Source: an uncultured Hormoscilla sp. (GTDB lineage Bacteria; Cyanobacteriota; Cyanobacteriia; Cyanobacteriales; Desertifilaceae). From it: a stretch of DNA of 64,000 nt. The position numbers and the translations under genes are program-made. The notes under the pieces were generated by a model, which saw only the letters and a program-made list of their open reading frames with translations, was not told the origin of the DNA and ran no database searches. Position 1 is the first letter of the stretch; every line of letters begins with the position of its first letter. Shown here one piece after another: positions 1,708 to 24,153 of the stretch. The stretch covers positions 3,040,001 through 3,104,000 of the forward strand of contig OZ001293.3 of assembly GCA_963921275.4 (NCBI GenBank), in the 5' to 3' direction.

Positions 1708-2076
1708 ATGATTCTGAACATAGTAGGCGACAAATTGCAGATAGAGTGGGAATGGTACGAGCAATTATGGGGAGCAAACCTGGAGAAAACCTGGGAAATT
1801 CCCCTAAGTCATATCCAAGGAGTGACTACAGAGGAACCAGCCAGCAGTTGGACTGAAATCCGCGCTCCGGGAACTTTCTTTCCCGGTATAATCAAGGCGG
1901 GAACCTATTACAGCAATCGCGGTAAGGAGTTCTGGTACGTGACGAAGGATCGGGATTACTTGGTATTGTCACTCCAGGAGGAGTCTTTCAAGAAAATTAT
2001 CCTGATTTTGGAGCAAAATGAATATTGGCGATCGCGCCTCGTGGAAACCCTATCTGAGACTACCGAGTGCAGCTAA
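1708..2076 (+). CDS. Conserved hypothetical protein
   Basis: 122-aa ORF with RBS GGAG; IRAPGT..PGIIKAGTYY motif. Confidence 0.7.
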   Translation: MILNIVGDKLQIEWEWYEQLWGANLEKTWEIPLSHIQGVTTEEPASSWTEIRAPGTFFPGIIKAGTYYSNRGKEFWYVTKDRDYLVLSLQEESFKKIILILEQNEYWRSRLVETLSETTECS

Positions 2077-2123
2077 ATTGCTAATTGGTGAAGTGTTGCT
2101 GACAACTATCATTCTCCGTACAT

Positions 2124-2354
2124 TTACCACATAGTATTGAGGTCTTCTTTGAAGTCAGCAACATCGTAATGAACGCAGATGTCACGACTGGCAAGTAAAT
2201 GTTGAAATTGGATTAAATGCATTCCCAGTATACGACTTGCTTTGCCTATACTTAATTGATTTTGTCGGAATAGCATCAGCACAATTTCCTGCATGAACTC
2301 ATTTTCCGACATGAGTGCAGATTGGAGGATTTCATCTGAGATGACTAGGCTCAT
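2124..2354 (-). CDS. UPF0175 family protein (putative antitoxin)
   Basis: LSIGKASRILGM...FQHLLASRDI...HYDVADFKEDL pattern; RBS AGGAG. Confidence 0.75.
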   Translation of the reverse strand: MSLVISDEILQSALMSENEFMQEIVLMLFRQNQLSIGKASRILGMHLIQFQHLLASRDICVHYDVADFKEDLNTMW

Positions 2355-2405
2355 TTTTCTCCTGTAGTCCTTCGAGTCTACTTTAATCTTATAAGAGATT
2401 GCTTT

Positions 2406-2562
2406 CTAATCCCTTAGCCTCTTGGGAATTGCGATTGGGGAGCTGTGAGTGTATTATAATGTAGAAGAGGATCCCAAACCTCGCGTCGAGATCATCGCGA
2501 TCGGGGTTAAGGAACGCAACCAGGTAAGAATTGGCAATAAGGTAGTCTATGAAAACACTTGA
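2406..2562 (+). pseudogene. RelE/ParE-like toxin C-terminal remnant
   Basis: SNPLASWELRLG / frameshift / VYYNVEEDPKPRVEIIAIGVKERNQVRIG, overlapping the start of the downstream antitoxin-like gene; N-terminus missing. Confidence 0.55.
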
Positions 2563-2806
2563 ACTTACCCAAGCGACAGCAACACTGGTAGATTACTTGC
2601 AAAATATGGGTCCGGAAACCCATATACTCAGCATTGACGGTCAACCGGTAGCTGCTTTGATGCCACTGGAAAATCTTGGTATGGAGACAATCAGTCTCAG
2701 CACGAACCCTGAGTTTTTAGGTATTTTAGCAGAATCAAGGGCAAGTTTGAAAGCAGAAGGAGGAATTCCCCTAGCAGAAGTAAAGCGGCGCTTATATCTG
2801 GCTTAA
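2549..2806 (+). CDS. Phd/YefM-like antitoxin
   Basis: MKTLELTQATATL...GQPVAALMPL...SLSTNPEFL...GIPLAEVKRRL; follows toxin remnant. Confidence 0.6.
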   Translation: MKTLELTQATATLVDYLQNMGPETHILSIDGQPVAALMPLENLGMETISLSTNPEFLGILAESRASLKAEGGIPLAEVKRRLYLA

Positions 2807-2884
2807 ATAAGGTGCGATCGCGCGGCAAATTAATGCAAGCAATCTAGCCCGCGCAGGCGGGCTTCGTTCATGTAGCCGGACCTT

Positions 2885-4337
2885 TTAGGGTTCGGGCGGC
2901 TGTAGCTTGTTAACGATCGGATTTCCCAGGATAATAATCAGCGCCGAAAGAGCGACGATCGGGACAACTGGAAGAAAACCAAAGGTCAAGCTTGGCGGAA
3001 GCAGACCCAATTGAAAGCCCAGCAGAACCAGTTCTCCCGCTACAATGGAGATGATACAACTCAGGGGGTGAATGTTTTTGCCATATAAGGCAGCAATTAC
3101 CGTCGGGAATAGTACCGATAATCCCGTAAAGGCTTGGGTGGCGAAGCCCAAGATTGAAGCTGGCGGTTTGTAGGCGAGGATCAAACCAATGATGGCTGCT
3201 AAAACAATCAGCACTCGGCCTACAAGGGTTTGTTCTTTGAGGGAAGCATTTTTCCGGAAGTAAGAGATGTAAATATCCCGCGTCAGCATTGAACTGATCG
3301 CCAACAACTGGGAATCCATTGTTGACATAAATGCTGCCAAGGCCCCCCACCATCACAAAGGAACTCAGCCATATGGGAGCATATTTTTCCAGCATCATGG
3401 GCAAAATTTGATCGGCCTCTTTTCCTACCAGATCCGGAAAAGCTATATGCCCCCACATCCCAATCATCACCGGGCAAATAAATAAGATTGTGACAATTGG
3501 ATATAATACTGTAGAAACTTTTAGGGAATTGGCATTTTTAGCTGCATAAAACCGCATGAACATTTGCGGTAACATCATCAGGGCCAAGTTCCAGAGAATA
3601 ATATAGCTAAACAACTTTTTCGGAGTGAAAAAGTTATCTACCCCCTGTCGAGAGAAAAGTTCTGGGGAAATCTCGTAGACATTGCTGTTAGCTGTAGCAA
3701 AACCTCCAAGGCCATGGGCGATCGCTACCAGGGCGGCGATCATGAGTACAAACATTAACACTCCTTGCCAGATATCGGTTAAAGCGACGCTTTTCATCCC
3801 GCCCACGCAGACATAGAAAACAATAATCAATGTCAAAAGCGTCGCCCCCAAAAAGTAGGGAATTTGTCCGTTAGTCAAGGTTGATAGCAGATACCCTGCC
3901 CCGATCGGCTGTAAAGTTAAATAAGGCAGGGTAAAAATTACCATCACCGCCATCACCAGCAATTTCAGGGCTTTGCTATGAAAGCAAACATCAATCAATT
4001 CTGGGGGAGTTATTAATCCTTTTTTCTTGCCATACTGCCAGACTTTGTAGCCGATATAATAGAAACCCAGTGCTGCTAAGCCCGTGTCAAAGGCCATCAT
4101 CGGGTAATAACTCAGGCCGATGCGATAGCCAGATCCGGCAAATCCCAGAAAAAAGAAGGCGCTGAAATTGGTGGCACTCAGGGTGAAAAAAAGGACGATC
4201 GGGTTAATTTTGCGATCGGCTAGGAAATATCCTTCAACGGTATTCTGTTCCTTTTGATAACCCGCCAGTCCTACCCACAGCGTCCCTAACAAATATATGG
4301 CGATCGCCAGATAGGGCATCAGGTACTCTATTGACAT
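2885..4337 (-). pseudogene. Sodium:solute symporter (PutP/PanF-like), frameshifted near 3340
   Basis: Hydrophobic SSS sequence (YFLADR, ATNFSA, GGMKSVALTD) in one frame continues as AAFMSTMDSQLL in another; shift lies at a G6 run. Confidence 0.85.
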
Positions 4338-14559: not shown

Positions 14560-16475
14560 TAAGTGCGCCGAAACTTACGCATCTCTCATATTCAGGCCAA
14601 ATTTCAGTACGAGAGTCAGGAGATATAGGTAGCGAAAGTAATCTATTATTTCCGTGTTTATGCTAGACAAGGCGGGCACTTGAAGGGAGTAGAGTTTCAA
14701 AGTATGAAACTAACTAAACTAATGAGGTCAAGTAGAAGAGGAGCATAACTGCAGGGAAAGGAAAATCACGTCGTACCGGACGTCAAGAAAGCAGTGCCGC
14801 TTCCTCAAAAAAGAAATTGCGCATATTACTCTGGAGCAAACTGCCAACTACAACTGTCAGCTATAGGAGAGTCTCAAATTATTCCCAACGTAACGCTCTT
14901 GAGCGACAACTTGCACACCCTGTGTTTCTACTATGCAACAGCGGAGTTCATTTAAAAAATTGTCGAACGGCTTAATTTTAGACGGCGACAATTTTGAGCC
15001 ATTCCGGAACGAATTGTTATCCAGGATATCCAGCGGATTGTCATTACCCACACCAGATAACTCTACTGGTTCAGATGAGAACTGGTTGAGCACTTATGTC
15101 AACACAATGGGGTCTTCATCTTGGTTCTCAACTCGTGCGGTCTCAGTCCAAAGCATGAGCAAGTACCGGATATGCTGTCCATCGGAAGTTGCTTCAGTTA
15201 AGGGCTATACGGCACAGAGCAGTATCGAAAAGAAGAAATCCATGAGCTACGGAAAGAATCCGTTTAAGCGCAGCAAAAATATTACGCCGAACAGCGTTCT
15301 CAAAATTCCGTTGTTTCCAGAACCAGAATTGCATAAGATTTGGAAAAAATGGCTAGCAGTATACCGTTGGGTTTACAACCAGTGTGTGGAATTCTATAAC
15401 AATGGACGAGCGCTGTCAGAGAGGCAATCTTTAGACCAGTACATACAGCAGTTGCAAAATTTGCCCGAAAACGACTGGACTAAGTGCCTCGGTAATACTA
15501 GGCAAGAAGCTGTTTGTGAAGCTCAAAATGCCAGTCGTCAATCACGCCAAGCTAATGGCGGCAAGTGTTTCCTGAGTTTCCGCTCTTGTAAAAACAAGTC
15601 CCAGGCTATCCAGTTCAAGAACAGTGCATACAAAAATGGAACGTGGTTCCGCTCGGAGATTAGGAACTTACAATTCGCAATTGCTAAAGGCTACGAGTTA
15701 CCAGCTAACTGTGTATACGGAACTGAGTTACTCTATCAAAGAGGACAGTGGTTTGCTTGCTTTCCGCAATACATCCGGGAGGTAACGACAGGCTCTGATC
15801 GCGTAATTGCTCTAGACCCAGGTAACCGTACTTTCCTAACTGGCTACGATGGAGAGAACATCTTAGAGATTGGCAGGGAAGACATCGGGCGGCTGACGAG
15901 GCTCTGCCTGCACCTCGACAAACTCGTTGGAAGAAAGATGAAAGCCACGGGTAAAGTAAACAAGCGGTTTCGGTACAAGTTGAGCAAAGCAATTGATCGG
16001 CAGAGGTCTCAGATTCGAGCGCTGGTGGATGACCTACATCGGAAGGCTGCTAGCCTGCTTGTCAACAGTTACAAACTGATATTTTTACCCACTTACAAAA
16101 CTTCTCAAATGGTTGTTAAAGCCAACCGCAAGATTAATCGGAAGTCGGTTAGAAATATGTTGACTTGGGCTATGAGCAGATTTGCCTCTCATCTGGAGCA
16201 AGCAGCTAAGAGAAAAGGAGTGCTGGTCGTCCGCTGTAACGAGGCTTATACTAGCAAAACTTGCCCCAAATGTGGTCACATCCACAAGCAACTTGGTGGC
16301 TCCAAAGTTCACAAATGTCAGGCTTGCGGTCATAAAGCACCGCGAGATTGGGTAGGCGCTCTCAACATAATTTGAGAGCTTTGCAGGCTGTCTCCTTCGA
16401 TGTTAGAGATGGCGTTATCACCATTTCTGATGCCGATGTTGTACTTGCACAGGGCGTTTATTAGCTTTGTGAGGG
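14560..16475 (+). mobile_element. IS607-family element (degenerate serine-recombinase tnpA + tnpB); ends approximate
   Basis: TnpA remnants GKITSYRT...TVSYRRVSNYSQRNALERQ at ~14758-14915, then tnpB; lies between the two halves of the LOG gene. Confidence 0.75.
14933..16375 (+). CDS. tnpB: TnpB RNA-guided endonuclease, IS607 type; true start uncertain, last residues possibly frameshifted
   Basis: RWVYNQ, IALDPG, CNEAYTSKTCPKCG, CQACG, RDWVGALNI. Confidence 0.9.
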   Translation: MQQRSSFKKLSNGLILDGDNFEPFRNELLSRISSGLSLPTPDNSTGSDENWLSTYVNTMGSSSWFSTRAVSVQSMSKYRICCPSEVASVKGYTAQSSIEKKKSMSYGKNPFKRSKNITPNSVLKIPLFPEPELHKIWKKWLAVYRWVYNQCVEFYNNGRALSERQSLDQYIQQLQNLPENDWTKCLGNTRQEAVCEAQNASRQSRQANGGKCFLSFRSCKNKSQAIQFKNSAYKNGTWFRSEIRNLQFAIAKGYELPANCVYGTELLYQRGQWFACFPQYIREVTTGSDRVIALDPGNRTFLTGYDGENILEIGREDIGRLTRLCLHLDKLVGRKMKATGKVNKRFRYKLSKAIDRQRSQIRALVDDLHRKAASLLVNSYKLIFLPTYKTSQMVVKANRKINRKSVRNMLTWAMSRFASHLEQAAKRKGVLVVRCNEAYTSKTCPKCGHIHKQLGGSKVHKCQACGHKAPRDWVGALNII

Positions 16476-18896: not shown

Positions 18897-19180
18897 AGGC
18901 CGATGGATGCTGGTTGCGATTAGGCTTATTTACCATTTTGCCAGGAAAATCCCGATCTGGCACCAAAAATTTTCTTGGTTTAGCGCCAGGGGTGATGCTG
19001 GGGCTAAACCAAGCGTATTTTTCCTGCCTGAGCGGAGTAATTCAACAAACCTATGTCAAGTTTTGTTAACAACCGCCACATACATCTTCCAGAAAGACGT
19101 TCATTTATGTTTACACTTCTTAACATAGACCTGTTTATTTTCACCTGTCTACTTAGGGCGAACAGAGAAAAATCGCTCTA

Positions 19181-21395
19181 CTATAGCCAAAACTGCCGAT
19201 CGCCCTCCAGCATGCCGGTGGGATTTATACCGTGTAACCGCAGATAAGCCATGCGATCGGATCCATAGAGTGGCATGGGCAAGCGTGGCGATTTTAACGC
19301 GCCATGATGCAACAATGTCAGTTTCAGGGTAGCTTCTACTACAGTTTCGATCGATACTTGGTGTCCTTGTTCATGCACCGTCAAACGCAGGGGACGCGCC
19401 AAACCAACATTAGCAGAAACCTCAGTCGTTATGACAATAGCTTCCCGATCGGATAAGCGAAGTGCCAATCCCTTTTTTGGTGCAGTCACTACTTTCTGGT
19501 TCAGATTGTACAGTCGAGGAACGTAAGACTTTCTGCACTCCACTAAAATAAACTTCGAGTCAATTGCCTTTGCCCATTCCAATAAATTATCAACTTCATT
19601 GCCACAAAAACGTCCGTCCCGGTAGATCAGAACAGTTTTGCGTTGCAGTTGAGATGCAGGTAGCAAGGTGTTCAAAAGCTGTGCTGGAATTTCTTCTCCT
19701 TCAATTATCGCATCTTCCAGATGGTAGCGAATGAACTCTCCTCGCCGTCCATAAACACGAATGCTTGCACAGGCATTTTGACTTCCGGATACGTTCTTTT
19801 TGGCAACTCGGGAAATATCCAAGCCAACGAAATAATCCGCGACCTCTAAAGGTTCAGCTAGAATGAAAGGCAAGTTCCCCAGTTTTGCCAGAACCCCTGG
19901 AATCACCTGATTGAGAACGTAGTTGGTTTGCACCTTCAAGGTTTCCTCATAAATCACTTGGCTCAATCCCGCGTCGAAGCAACCGCGAGTATACCCAATA
20001 ATATAGACTGCCGTCCTCTTCCCGATCGGAGTGGCGATCGCTCTCGGGCAAAAAGGTAAAAACAATGTCAGGGGTCGGCACAAGCAATTCATCAAGCGCT
20101 TTTTCAACTTCCGCTTTTGCCTTTGCAGCACTCAACTCCTTGACTGACAACTGCTTCGTATTAATAATTTTGCTCTCAAAATCATAGCGTTTTAGCTGTT
20201 CTTGAACTTTCTTGAGAAATGGAGTTAGCTTGCGATCGCATAATTTCAGAGCTGCAATACGGATTTGTTGCTGATTATCTCGGTATTCATCGTGACGGCG
20301 ATAAACACCTCCTGTAGACAAACCATTGAGAATTTTACCTGAGGCGCGAGTAACCTTTTTCCCGAAAAGAAGTGGGGTTTGCTCCAGGGGAGTCGATGGT
20401 TGCCAGAATAAAGATGGGGAATCTTTGCTGTTGATACTACGCTGTAGCTCAAATCCATAGGCTGCTAGAGCAGGATTCGCTATTTTCTTGGAGGAGTCAA
20501 CCAATAGTTGTTGCCGCTGTTCATGGGAAATTTTAGTTTTCTCGATCAATTTTCCATATTCCACCTCAAAACTCGCAGCTGTTTCAGAGGTAATGCAAGG
20601 ACGTAAAGCCGCCATCGCATAGTAATACGGCTTCCCATTCTTGCCAAATTGTACCCCCACCAAGGGTTGATTGTCAGGCGCATCTCGCAGTGCTTGTTTG
20701 CTGACTGCACCTGTCGCCTTTTCGATTAATTTTTCCCGGTGTTCTCCAATTTTGCCGACAATAGCGCCAATAGTACCGCTACCTCCAGATTCAATGTTTT
20801 GAACTTTCAAACCAATTAAAAGTTCTTGAGGATTTTGCCGGAAGGGATGATTATTGTAGAAATCAGCCAAGTTCCCCTTATAGAGGATACTGCTGCGAAC
20901 CGTTATAGTTACAGCAGGCCGTAATTTACCGTCGAGTTCGATGGTTTCTGACCAAATATCAACCTCGCGCCTGACTTCAACTCCTTTGTCAGAGAAAACC
21001 ACAGGTTGCTCGAATTTTGTTTCCCTTAAGACTTGAACGGCCAGTTGAGCTATAATTAAAGGAGTTTCCTTTGGCTCGCGCACCCCTTGAAATGACCAGT
21101 AGCGATCGCCAATCTCATCTTTTAAATCTTCTTGGATATTTTCGAGTGCCTTTTTCAATTCAGCTTTGTCTGGCATAGTACTACCTGGTTTGGCTAAAAT
21201 CCAAAAATATGATTTTTCCCAGATAGCAACTATATCGGGAAACTGGCGACTAAACCGGAAAGCTAAGCGGTTTCCCTCCTGCCGTTCCACTTCAGGTGTC
21301 AGTCGAAAACAGATTAAATTCGGCTGCGAGATAGTTAAGGGGAAAATCTCGCTCAAAAAGATGGGAGATGTCTGAACTTGAACTTGAGTAGTCAT
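19181..21395 (-). pseudogene. ago: Long prokaryotic Argonaute (N-PAZ-MID-PIWI, ~738 aa if repaired), frameshifted near 19964
   Basis: ...LLRRGI|SQVIYEE joint across two ORFs; AKLGNLPFIL, VGLDISR, IIEGEEIP, IYRDGRF, RLPMPLYGSDRMA give a candidate DEDD tetrad. Confidence 0.9.
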
Positions 21396-22206
21396 GCGGA
21401 AACCTCAGAAACAGAAAATTTACAAATGGAATTAAAGGCACAGTAGCGACAAGCAAAACCGGGGTTTGGTGGAAAAACGTTTGCGAAGCAAGCAGAGTTT
21501 TGTCGGTAACGTCTCAAATCTTGCTGATGCTGTTTGGCTATTTGTGTCAACTCGCTCTGAATGGCTCGCAGTTGGGCATTTGTCGCCTTAATATCCTCAG
21601 ACGCTTTACCGGTTTCCAAGTTATAGAAAGAGGCGATCGCTGGTTGTTGCGGATAGAGATAGCGGGCGGCTAGCAGGTAAACAAATGCCTGTCGGCGGTC
21701 AAAATCTGATTTACCCGTCTTGAAGTCTAAAATATGCAGCGTGCCGTCAGGCTCAGTAAAAATACAGTCGATCGCCGCAAAGAGGTTAAAGAAATAGTTC
21801 CCTTCCCGGATTAAAATAGGTGTGGGATATCCCTCATCACCTCGACGATGTTCTTCCCAAGGAGAATAGGATTTTCACGGTACTTTTTGAGGATGGCAGT
21901 CACTCGCGCCTGAACTGTAGCTGACTCTTGAGACAATTGCAAAATCTCTGCCACTTGCTCGACAGCATCTTTTCTGTACAAGATCGGGGAGTTCTGATGA
22001 AACTCGTAAACCCCCTTTTGGGCGAGAATGCCAATCCGCTGAGCTGTGTTGTCTTGCTCCAAGAGCGCTTTAACTTGGGGTTCTTTCTTGCGAGCCTTAG
22101 TGAAACCCCGCTTCATATCACAGTGCCAGTATTCCTGTCCTACTGGTGGAGAAAACAAAGACCAGAGATTATAACTGGCAAATTGCCAAATTTTATTTTC
22201 GATCAT
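21392..22206 (-). pseudogene. Cas4-like PD-(D/E)xK nuclease with Fe-S cysteines (Argonaute-associated, ACE1-like), frameshifted near 21848
   Basis: N-terminal HCDMKRGF; after the shift RGDEGYP...AIDCIF...ILDFKTG...QAFVYLL...[10 protein letters not shown]; stop overlaps the ago start (ATGA). Confidence 0.85.
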
Positions 22207-22291
22207 ATATCACATCTCACTTTTTTTGTCAACCAATTCTGCTGAACAGCTGAACAGACGCTCCAGCATGAAAAGGAGAGGGTTTCGGTCT

Positions 22292-22906
22292 CATAGGGCC
22301 AAGTATGAGCTGCCCTGGCCGAGGTAGCAAACCACCGGCGTTACGTTGACTGATTTAGCCAACCAACGACGATGCTAACTTATGTTGACTAATATCGTCA
22401 ACTCAGAGGATGAAAACCTTGCCATAGGGCCAAGTACAAGCTGCCCTTGCCGGGGTAGCCACCGATTTAGTTGACTAATTTAGCCAACCCGCTTCGATGC
22501 TAACTTATGTTGACTAATATCGTCAATCCAGAGGATGAAAACCTTGCCATAGGGGTTAAGCACAAGCAGCCCTGGCTGAGGTAGCCACCGGTTTAGTTAA
22601 CTAATTTAGCCAACCCGCTTCGATGCTAACTTATGTTGACTAATATCGTCAACCCAGAGGATGAAAACCTTGCCATAGGGGTTAAGCACAAGCAGCCCTG
22701 GCCGAGGTAGCCACCGGTTTAGTTGACTAATTTAGCCAACTCGCTCCGATACTAACTTAGGTTGACTAATATCGTCAACCTAGAGGATGAAAACCTTGCC
22801 ATAGGGCCAAGCACAAGCAGCCCTGGCCGAGGTAGCCACCGGTTTAGTTGACTAATTTAGCCAACTCGCTCCGATGCTAACTCATATTGACTAATATCGT
22901 CAACCC
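22292..22906. repeat. Tandem array of five ~125-bp units (131, 125, 126, 126 and ~107 bp)
   Basis: Units start CATAGGG at 22292, 22423, 22548, 22674, 22800; each has GTTGACTAATTTAGCCAAC and GTTGACTAATATCGTCAAC (minor variants) 20 bp apart. Confidence 0.97.
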
Positions 22907-22916
22907 TTAGTATGAT
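22887..22916 (+). promoter_or_regulatory. Putative sigma70 promoter for the XRE/ImmA operon, overlapping the last palindrome
   Basis: TTGACT-N18-TATGAT. Confidence 0.6.
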
Positions 22917-22929
22917 TAGTAAGTAAGTA

Positions 22930-23083
22930 ACCTAGGTTGCTACCTATAGAACCTCAAAACCTTGCATTAGCCAAAATTGGCAAAAATTGCCTTGTGATTT
23001 ACCCTAAAATGGCATTTTTGCGGAGAAATTCACCAAAAATGGCTGTTTGGGACGTAGAAATTTTTATAGGTAGCAACTTGAGT
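22930..23083. mobile_element. 154-bp IS982-type MITE, inverted relative to 16863-17016
   Basis: Ends ACCTAGGTTGCTACCTAT...ATAGGTAGCAACTTGAGT; interior is a diverged reverse complement of the 16.9-kb copy; no clear TSD. Confidence 0.85.
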
Positions 23084-23112
23084 TAATGATTTAAGTAAGT
23101 AGGGAAAAAACC

Positions 23113-23478
23113 GTGAATCAGACGTTTGGCAAGGTTATTCGTCAAGCCCGCAGGGACAAGGGATACAGCCAGCGCGAGCTAGCCAAGTTGATAGGGGTGA
23201 ATTATACCTACCTATCCAAGCTAGAGAACGACCACGCTGGGTATCCTCCTAGCGAGGAGGTCATTGAGTGCTTAGGGCGTCATCTAGAATTGGACGAAGT
23301 CGAGCTAAAATACTTAGCTGGCAGGATTGCGCCGGAAGACGAGGAAGTTTTTAAGGAACTTGTCAAGAAGTATAAACAGATGCCTGCTTTGCTCCGCCGC
23401 ATGCGGGACAATCCTGATTTTGTCCAAAAATTACTTCAGGAAGTAACCCAAGTAGAAAAGGAGGAGGAGCCGTTTTGA
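23113..23478 (+). CDS. XRE-family HTH transcriptional regulator (CapH/ImmR/DdrO-like)
   Basis: FGKVIRQARRDKGYSQRELAKLIGVNYTYLSKLEND; GTG start. Confidence 0.92.
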   Translation: MNQTFGKVIRQARRDKGYSQRELAKLIGVNYTYLSKLENDHAGYPPSEEVIECLGRHLELDEVELKYLAGRIAPEDEEVFKELVKKYKQMPALLRRMRDNPDFVQKLLQEVTQVEKEEEPF

Positions 23479-24119
23479 ATGTAATCAAGCCCTATCGCTT
23501 CATTCCCAAGCAGGAAATTGAGCGTCAGGCTAACAACCTTCTCAAGCAAATGGAGGCGACGCCAAATTTGGCACCCAAATGGCCTTTTGATGCTACTCGC
23601 GTGGCTGACTTTTTGGATCTAGGTGTTGTCTGGGACACAATAGAGCCTGATGAGGAAGGGCCAATTGCAGCTATGATTCTGCCGCTTCAAAGTGAAATTG
23701 TAATAAATGAAAATATTTCAGCAATACATGGAGGCTTTGGCGAATCAACATTAGCCCATGAAATTGGACATTGGGAACTTCATATTGACCATAACGCGGT
23801 TGGTAAGTTTTTATATCGCAGAACGGATGGGATCGAAAAAACTATTATCGCGCCGTTTTTATGTCGTAGCGATACCATTCAGAAAGGGATTGAATGGCAA
23901 GCTCAGTATTTTGCTAGTTGTTTACTGATGCCTCTTGATAAGTTAGAAGAAGTGCGCATAGGGCGCGTTCTAACGAAATGGTCTCACCTTTACGCTATAA
24001 AAGATGAGCTTGGTATCACTATATCTAATCTGACAAACCGTTTGCAAGATATTGATTGGATTCACATTCCCAAAAATTCTAAGCAAATTTATCTGGGAAA
24101 AGCTGCGCCTGGTCGGTAA
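23475..24119 (+). CDS. ImmA/IrrE-family Zn metallopeptidase (CapP-like)
   Basis: TLAHEIGHW (HExxH), EWQAQYFASCLLMP; start overlaps the XRE stop. Confidence 0.92.
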   Translation: MNVIKPYRFIPKQEIERQANNLLKQMEATPNLAPKWPFDATRVADFLDLGVVWDTIEPDEEGPIAAMILPLQSEIVINENISAIHGGFGESTLAHEIGHWELHIDHNAVGKFLYRRTDGIEKTIIAPFLCRSDTIQKGIEWQAQYFASCLLMPLDKLEEVRIGRVLTKWSHLYAIKDELGITISNLTNRLQDIDWIHIPKNSKQIYLGKAAPGR

Positions 24120-24153
24120 CAGGGGCGATCGCGGCGATCGCCCCCCGATCGTA

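Follow-up and report, generated by a model that had tools for sequence, protein, structure and literature searches.

A tandem array beside a cyanobacterial Argonaute–Cas4 operon as a candidate amplified operator/promoter bank

What is a run of five similar units, each with its own pair of palindromes and its own promoter-like site, doing between a defense operon and the genes that appear to control it? The question is raised by a 64,000-nucleotide stretch of an uncultured Hormoscilla sp. genome (GenBank assembly GCA_963921275.4, contig OZ001293.3, positions 3,040,001 to 3,104,000), hereafter the window, in which a tandem array separates the genes for a Cas4-family nuclease and a long prokaryotic Argonaute (pAgo) from a divergent pair, xre and immA, encoding an XRE-family repressor and an ImmA/IrrE-type metallopeptidase (Table 1). 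A preliminary description of this DNA had offered two readings of the array, a bank of XRE operators and promoters or a battery of small-RNA cassettes. Our analyses lead us to favor, with moderate confidence, a form of the first, in which tandem amplification of the control module at a cyanobacterial pAgo–Cas4 (APACE1-type) defense island produced the array, and hence an amplified XRE operator/promoter bank.

Tandem Repeats Finder placed the repeat at 22292–22906, with a period of 126 bp, 4.9 copies and 90% matches, and a search of the unit against its own 7.03-Mb genome returned five matches, every one within the array. Each unit carries two 19-bp palindromes, O1 and O2, spaced 20 bp apart. 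The pattern GTTGRC-N7-GYCAAC fits seven of the ten palindromes exactly and the remaining three with one mismatch each (GTTAAC in u3 O1, GTCAAT in u2 O2 and ATTGAC in u5 O2); in its strict form it has zero occurrences outside the array in the 7.03-Mb genome. A promoter scan found six consensus sites, against 1.5 ± 1.0 in shuffled sequence. Five of these sites, one per unit, face cas4–ago, and the sixth, confined to the terminal unit, faces xre. Because O2 has TTGAC on both strands, it would serve as the −35 element of the leftward cas4–ago and the rightward xre–immA promoters alike; indeed, its TTGACT and CAA are invariant in all 16 units found across three species. Where the terminal unit has the TATGAT of the xre promoter, the internal units read GATGAA, a decayed copy of the xre −10. 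Units 2–5 also contain a GC hairpin followed by AAGGTTTT, part of the 5′ arm of which is missing from unit 1, the unit with the lowest identity to the others (79–83%). The preliminary description had reported five ~125-bp tandem units with ten 19-bp palindromes, a minus-strand TTGACG-N18-TAGCAT/TAGTAT in each unit, a plus-strand TTGACT-N18-TATGAT for the divergent XRE gene, the hairpin with its trailing sequence in units 2–5 and unit 1 as the most diverged. Tandem Repeats Finder, the ten palindrome positions, the promoter scan and the unit identities agree with it on each of these points.

The origin of this arrangement is suggested by homologous loci elsewhere in the phylum. With the Ago of a relative, G003, as query, a 401-genome phylum sample gave 24 non-self matches, and the upstream 5 kb was taken for 18 of them, leaving aside five matches that were weak or fragmentary and one located where its contig starts. 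At all 18 loci cas4 lies upstream of ago; a divergent XRE gene is present at 16, and in 15 of these 16 it is followed by an ImmA gene. The cas4–XRE spacers, which measure 81–619 bp, contain a TTGA-N8-9-TCAA palindrome in 16/16 cases, two in 10 of them and never more. In total, 26 palindromes fall within 4043 bp of spacer, whereas shuffles give 0.23 and the flanks 0.22 per kb. The XRE-proximal palindrome offers TTGAnn on both strands, with TAnnnT at 16–19 bp leftward in 12/16 loci and rightward in 12/16. None of the 18 homologous loci has a tandem repeat in the cas4–XRE zone. In one genus the single module reads GTTGACTAAAATAATCAAC-N24-GTTGACTGAAATAGTCAAC-CCTTGATATAAT, which is plainly of the same design as one array unit. 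On this comparison, the array unit is one copy of a conserved module with divergent promoters and two predicted operators.

A second, paralogous XRE–ImmA pair is present in 14/14 family genomes, its XRE being 62% identical to the array-linked one (G000:C1:917788-919263, L108). Within the genus this pair has a single layout, O1-GATGCTAAC-O2, with the same −10. The recognition-helix region is nearly identical in the paralogous and array-linked XRE proteins, so that cross-binding is conceivable. The paralogous pair is divergent from a conserved gene of ~98 residues that has no Pfam family, and its O2 has a 6-nt rather than a 7-nt center. Among the 16 XRE-bearing loci of the phylum sample, four (L093–L096, at ~1050–1330) have a conserved gene of 67–83 residues (MKKQ.SNPDQLCFSIGRPLP...) that separates xre from cas4, shares the strand of cas4 and may be a further operon member. 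In L095 and L096 (~2065–3470), the peptidase gene is duplicated in tandem, so that xre is followed by two immA-like genes in a row.

The amplification is narrowly distributed and older than the species that carry it. The array unit was found in 3/14 family genomes and in 3/401 order genomes, its own genome included; all belong to one genus and represent three species. The copies occupy the same place between cas4 and xre and number five in the window genome, eight in G005 and three in G004. A scan of genome records with O1 returned 17 loci, 15 of them single matches in unrelated bacteria (11 in Photobacterium), with multiple copies only in two Hormoscilla sp. records; a metagenome scan with the O1 19-mer returned no array but six matches, each single and unrelated. 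Every one of the 11 Photobacterium records has one exact copy of the 19-mer GTTGACTAATTTAGCCAAC, at a seemingly conserved place, and these copies are probably unrelated to the array. In a tree of the units, sequences group by position rather than by genome: the first units of all three species make up one clade (support 97/96), and u5 of the window pairs with u8 of G005 (support 93/98). Similarly, u2 of the window is 94% identical to u3 of G005, and u3 of the window 95% identical to u4 of G005. The synonymous divergence (dS) of a neighboring M17 peptidase gene is 0.076 and 0.16. Thus, units are orthologous by position across species, and the array is older than the species split; to judge from these sequences, a ~126-bp segment was tandem-copied in one genus before that split. 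The preliminary description had allowed that the expansion might be specific to one strain, with a single unit at homologous loci. The homologous loci of the phylum sample do lack a tandem repeat, but the expansion is common to three species and positionally orthologous, and so is not strain-specific.

On the reading that we favor, the ancestral module would have been a single copy in which two palindromes act as operators for XRE, the repressor encoded divergently. The leftward −10 would lie between O2 and O1, and O1 would cover the start of the leftward transcript. The amplified segment would comprise the hairpin of the 5′ untranslated region, O1, the −10, O2 and the degenerated copy of the xre −10. 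XRE dimers on the ten sites would keep the five tandem leftward promoters and the single xre promoter off until a signal activates the ImmA/CapP-like peptidase, which would remove XRE. All five leftward promoters would then fire toward cas4–ago, and the extra operators would also take up extra repressor. In CapP and IrrE, the inducing signal is DNA damage or single-stranded DNA, as described in portions of bioRxiv 10.64898/2026.05.16.725639 and PMC10904395. For the present locus, we infer XRE binding to the palindromes, the nature of the inducing signal and any tightening or sharpening of the switch by additional copies.

Conservation within the units is consistent with this reading. We counted minimum substitutions per column-opportunity within four groups of orthologous units, a count in which comparisons are few and branches shared, and obtained 1/64 for O1, 0/24 for the leftward −10, 4/48 for the O2 arms, 6/28 for the O2 center and 8/56 for the hairpin stems, against a background of 34/246 for all other columns. 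Relative to this background, O1 is conserved (p = 0.003) and the −10 is borderline (p = 0.053); the O2 arms by themselves show no difference (p = 0.36). Pooling these arms with O1 and the −10 gives 5/136 substitutions (p = 0.0013). The hairpin stems do not differ from the background rate.

A number of observations weigh against an amplified operator/promoter bank. Besides the few comparisons and shared branches behind the substitution counts, many of the 16 XRE-bearing loci are congeneric, five of them coming from one genus, and therefore they do not amount to 16 independent cases. The sole RNA run recovered, with a small share, covered only immA, at 23652–23942 and with a depth of 3. Individual units have also lost the parts that appear conserved: deletions in 4/8 units of G005 remove O1 (u4 and u5) or the leftward −10 (u2 and u7), and in G004 the leftward −10 of u1 is altered. 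These losses indicate that single units are dispensable. Orthologous units of the window and G005 are 92–95% identical, which, compared with a dS of 0.076, is near neutral overall. Moreover, the control region itself can be dispensed with: in G003 (L063, G003:C11 5880-9220), which keeps cas4 and ago, the array and xre are gone, immA is reduced to an 83-bp remnant, and the open cas4 is preceded by ~270 bp of unrelated sequence. The genes that the array would regulate are decaying as well. In all four island-bearing species ago is defective, in each by its own lesion: a frame change and a duplicated stretch in the window genome, in-frame stops in G005, a frameshift in G004 and, in G003, a 680-residue open reading frame (ORF) without the conserved C-terminal ~63 residues. 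In addition, cas4 is broken in the window genome and immA has an in-frame stop in G005.

Much of this evidence would suit a different explanation, which we regard as possible though doubtful, namely that the array is a neutral relic. Slippage or unequal recombination would have multiplied the module, which then stayed on in a decaying defense island as a variable-number repeat, its extra units having no regulatory effect visible to selection. The copy numbers of three, five and eight in three species, the deletions in G005, the whole-unit divergence near dS, the hairpin stems changing at the background rate and the lesions in ago, cas4 and immA are all in line with it, as are the deletion of the whole control region in G003 and the toleration of a mobile element between the xre promoter and xre in the window. 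However, substitutions are markedly rarer in O1 and the −10 than in the rest of the unit (the pooled comparison above), the positional order of the array has been kept through two speciation steps, and the first regulated gene, cas4, is open in G003, G004 and G005, with a ratio of nonsynonymous to synonymous substitution rates (dN/dS) of 0.20–0.31 among these three. For XRE, the window and G005 differ by one synonymous and three nonsynonymous changes, too few for a usable dN/dS.

The small-RNA battery is, in our estimation, improbable. Each unit would here be an XRE-controlled cassette for a discrete minus-strand RNA of ~85–90 nt that ends at the GC hairpin, in the manner of NsiR1 and perhaps linked to Argonaute. 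Every unit does have its own promoter-like site, and the −10 is conserved; in the predicted RNA, O1 would form a hairpin at the 5′ end and the GC hairpin would lie at the 3′ end, with fold z-scores of −3.8 and −4.7 in two of the six folded units; u2 of G004 has one compensatory change, from A:U to C:G; and NsiR1 provides a precedent, with 12 tandem copies each having its own promoter (part of PMC4030482). Against this, no terminator-like site was called inside any unit, and the U-run after the hairpin is only 3–4 long and shorter in G005. The z-scores of four of the six folded ~92-nt RNAs range from −0.7 to −2.6, and two of the RNAs take a different fold. Pairing is kept in 88.9% of cells compared to 87.9% in shuffles, 34 of 500 of which reach 88.9%, and a single cell in 180 is compensatory. 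The stems change at the background rate (8/56 versus 34/246), and an equivalent hairpin was not seen on reading the single-module loci elsewhere. An Rfam 15 search of 21500–23600 with E up to 10 gave no match in the array, its only three hits lying at 23289–23559 (E 1.5–9.3). Finally, the known APACE1 pAgos use DNA guides, according to part of PMC12094033.

A version of this idea that we hold to be slightly less probable still is a battery inducible by damage or infection, in which cleavage of XRE would lead the five promoters (elsewhere three to eight) each to release a short, structured minus-strand RNA acting with or on Argonaute–Cas4, for example in priming or as a decoy substrate. It would amount to an NsiR1-style small-RNA array wired to a defense switch, and it is weakened by the missing terminator together with the unconstrained hairpin. 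Of the two readings in the preliminary description, then, the operator/promoter bank held up in its anatomy and evolution, given the palindromes at 16/16 loci, the −35/−10 geometry and the few substitutions in O1 and the −10, and the small-RNA battery was not supported, given the lack of a terminator and a hairpin that changes at the background rate.

That one unit was falsely expanded into an array during assembly is very improbable: although no single read contig spans the whole array, scattered substitutions distinguish the units, arrays stand at the same place in the assemblies of two other species with first and last units orthologous, and unit-specific contigs from reads of the same organism (22373–22503, 22547–22629, 22721–22838 and 22846–23044) match with 0 differences at a depth of 41–43, compared to 43.6 and 41 in the flanks, in runs that are possibly the same data as the assembly. 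Unit-specific contigs at the depth of the flanks indicate that the five unit variants exist at single copy. We also rejected a repeat protein (126 bp would be 42 codons), as no ORF of at least 50 residues crosses the array and units in relatives have indels, and iterons, a centromere or a CRISPR-like array, as the unit is confined to one syntenic chromosomal interval, lacks spacers and has single regulatory modules as its homologues elsewhere.

The flanking genes fit a repressor–peptidase pair beside a damaged defense operon. The co-oriented xre and immA overlap by four bases (23475–23478). XRE matches the PADLOC capH profile at 1.2e-9, with residues 1–99 on profile positions 3–93 of 103. The peptidase matches capP at 3.7e-14, its residues 56–180 of 214 aligning with profile positions 35–140 of 242, that is, with the peptidase part only. 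In a tblastn search with the G003 orthologue of cas4, which itself matches PADLOC Aga_Cas4-like_Nuc at 1.8e-145, residues 2–123 fall in one frame of the window and residues 123–272 in another, and in the contig of a relative 10 further bases follow 21843, at the cas4 break. For ago, the G003 orthologue of which matches PADLOC pAgo_II, residues 1–476 and 423–673 lie in different frames, a stretch being duplicated, and the C-terminal tail is retained. The preliminary description had recognized the damage to ago; it had overlooked that cas4 is split too, and that an insertion resembling a miniature inverted-repeat transposable element (MITE) separates the XRE promoter from the XRE start. The MITE has 28 genome matches of at least 140 bp with a median identity of 82%, their ends piling up at 22928 and 23085–23087, as well as inner inverted repeats GTTGCTACCTATAG and a target duplication of ~10 bp; its read depth is 760–1364, versus ~42 in the flanks. 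It is absent from G004, G005 and a relative from a sponge metagenome, and a relative's contig jumps from 22919 to 23092. In the relatives, 35 bp separate the array from the XRE start codon, and the same XRE promoter ends up 20–25 bp before the XRE start. At the scale of the island, G006 lacks the whole ~5.2-kb segment from ago through cas4, the array and xre to immA (window 18974–24132), with the kinase and M17 peptidase flanks joined within ~40 bp (L057, G006:C173 733-775 versus window 18973 and 24133), which indicates that the module behaves as one unit of insertion or deletion. About 6 kb from the island, at 14933–16375 of the window, lies an ORF of 480 residues with a Cas12f1-like TNB domain (TnpB-like).

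Table 1. Features of the array and its flanks (positions in the window)
Feature	Position	Strand	Basis or remark
Whole tandem array, five ~126-bp units (125–131 bp each)	22281..22916	no strand	units cut at GATGAAA junctions
Unit u1	22281–22408		
Unit u2	22409–22533		
Unit u3	22534–22659		
Unit u4	22660–22785		
Unit u5	22786–22916		
O1 operators (predicted), GTTGACTAATTTAGCCAAC type	22345–22363, 22470–22488, 22596–22614, 22722–22740, 22847–22865		just downstream of the predicted leftward start
O2 operators (predicted), GTTGACTAATATCGTCAAC type	22384–22402, 22509–22527, 22635–22653, 22761–22779, 22886–22904		TTGAC on each strand, giving a shared −35
Five leftward promoter-like sites, TTGACG-N18-TAGCAT (u4: TAGTAT)	22372..22903	minus	consensus promoter scan
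Leftward −35 starts	22401, 22526, 22652, 22778, 22903	minus	
Leftward −10 ends	22372, 22497, 22623, 22749, 22874	minus	
Rightward XRE promoter, TTGACT-N18-TATGAT	22887..22916	plus	promoter scan; terminal unit only
GC hairpins, units 2–5	22416–22456, 22541–22582, 22667–22708, 22793–22833	minus	followed by a U-run of 3–4
XRE-family helix-turn-helix (HTH) repressor, CapH-like, 121 residues	23113..23478	plus	Pfam HTH_31 and HTH_3, both 1.4e-10
ImmA/IrrE-type M78 metallopeptidase, 214 residues, HEIGH motif (HExxH)	23475..24119	plus	Pfam PF06114, 2.7e-6
cas4-family (ACE1-like) gene, PDDEXK_1, broken	21395..22206	minus	frame change near 21832–21844
Long pAgo gene, broken	19181..21395	minus	Pfam Piwi, 2.6e-12; tblastn
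MITE-like insertion, ~160 bp	22928..23087	no strand	between the xre promoter and the xre ribosome-binding site/start

A general point emerges from this locus: cyanobacterial pAgo–Cas4 operons of the APACE1 type are usually paired with a divergent CapH/CapP-like repressor–protease, and a predicted palindromic operator is the −35 element of both promoters. Given that pairing and the shared operator, these Argonaute systems are predicted to be inducible rather than constitutive. The modules of one, three, five and eight copies would constitute a natural series for the effect of repeated operators on the tightness and sharpness of a switch. As the island is decaying in the genus, the array itself may no longer matter to its host. 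The preliminary description knew of no such array at pAgo loci, and likewise none was found in the literature searched. In that same literature, the supplementary tables on CapH/CapP aside, the regular pairing of a CapH/CapP-like pair with cyanobacterial pAgo–Cas4 and the shared −35 operator also appear to be undescribed. Enrichment of HTH_3 proteins near pAgos was noted in 2018 (PMC6299218). This and the comparisons that follow draw on parts of the cited sources.

The closest likeness is to CapH/CapP, which parallels DdrO/IrrE of Deinococcus and ImmR/ImmA of ICEBs1: in both cases an XRE HTH repressor and an adjacent HExxH metallopeptidase stand beside a defense operon (bioRxiv 10.1101/2022.04.27.489752; 10.64898/2026.05.16.725639), and a palindromic operator, here a predicted one, lies within the promoter. 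The differences are threefold. First, the operon here is pAgo–Cas4, and Argonaute or pAgo is absent from the main text of both preprints. Second, the match of the window's peptidase to the capP profile is confined to the peptidase part; the full CapP architecture combines the peptidase with a GAF-type sensing domain and a cysteine switch (10.64898/2026.05.16.725639). Third, the operator/promoter module is here amplified 3–8 fold, a feature absent from the descriptions given in the preprints. The defense genes themselves resemble APACE1, a cyanobacterial long-A pAgo with an ACE1 nuclease of the Cas4 family (PMC12094033), in phylum, gene pair and order, with the cas4-family gene first and pAgo after it. 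Unlike in APACE1, both genes are broken here. The main text of that paper contains none of the terms HTH, helix-turn-helix, ImmA or IrrE and thus does not deal with the divergent regulators or their operators.

As an array, the locus recalls NsiR1 of heterocystous cyanobacteria (PMC4030482), in which intergenic tandem direct repeats, each with its own promoter (here a consensus match), likewise lie by a regulated gene. However, the NsiR1 units yield a defined 60-nt RNA, whereas here no terminator was called and the hairpin is unconstrained, and the conserved parts of the present units are palindromes in common with single-copy loci and putatively protein binding. Repeated decoy sites for transcription factors (PMC3322331) offer a further parallel, as tandem repeats of a binding site could sequester a regulator and sharpen the response; that system is synthetic, in yeast, and built on an activator, whereas the present one is natural and bacterial and includes the promoters. 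Set beside these systems, the repressor–protease switch is of a known kind, and its 3–8-fold tandem amplification is new.

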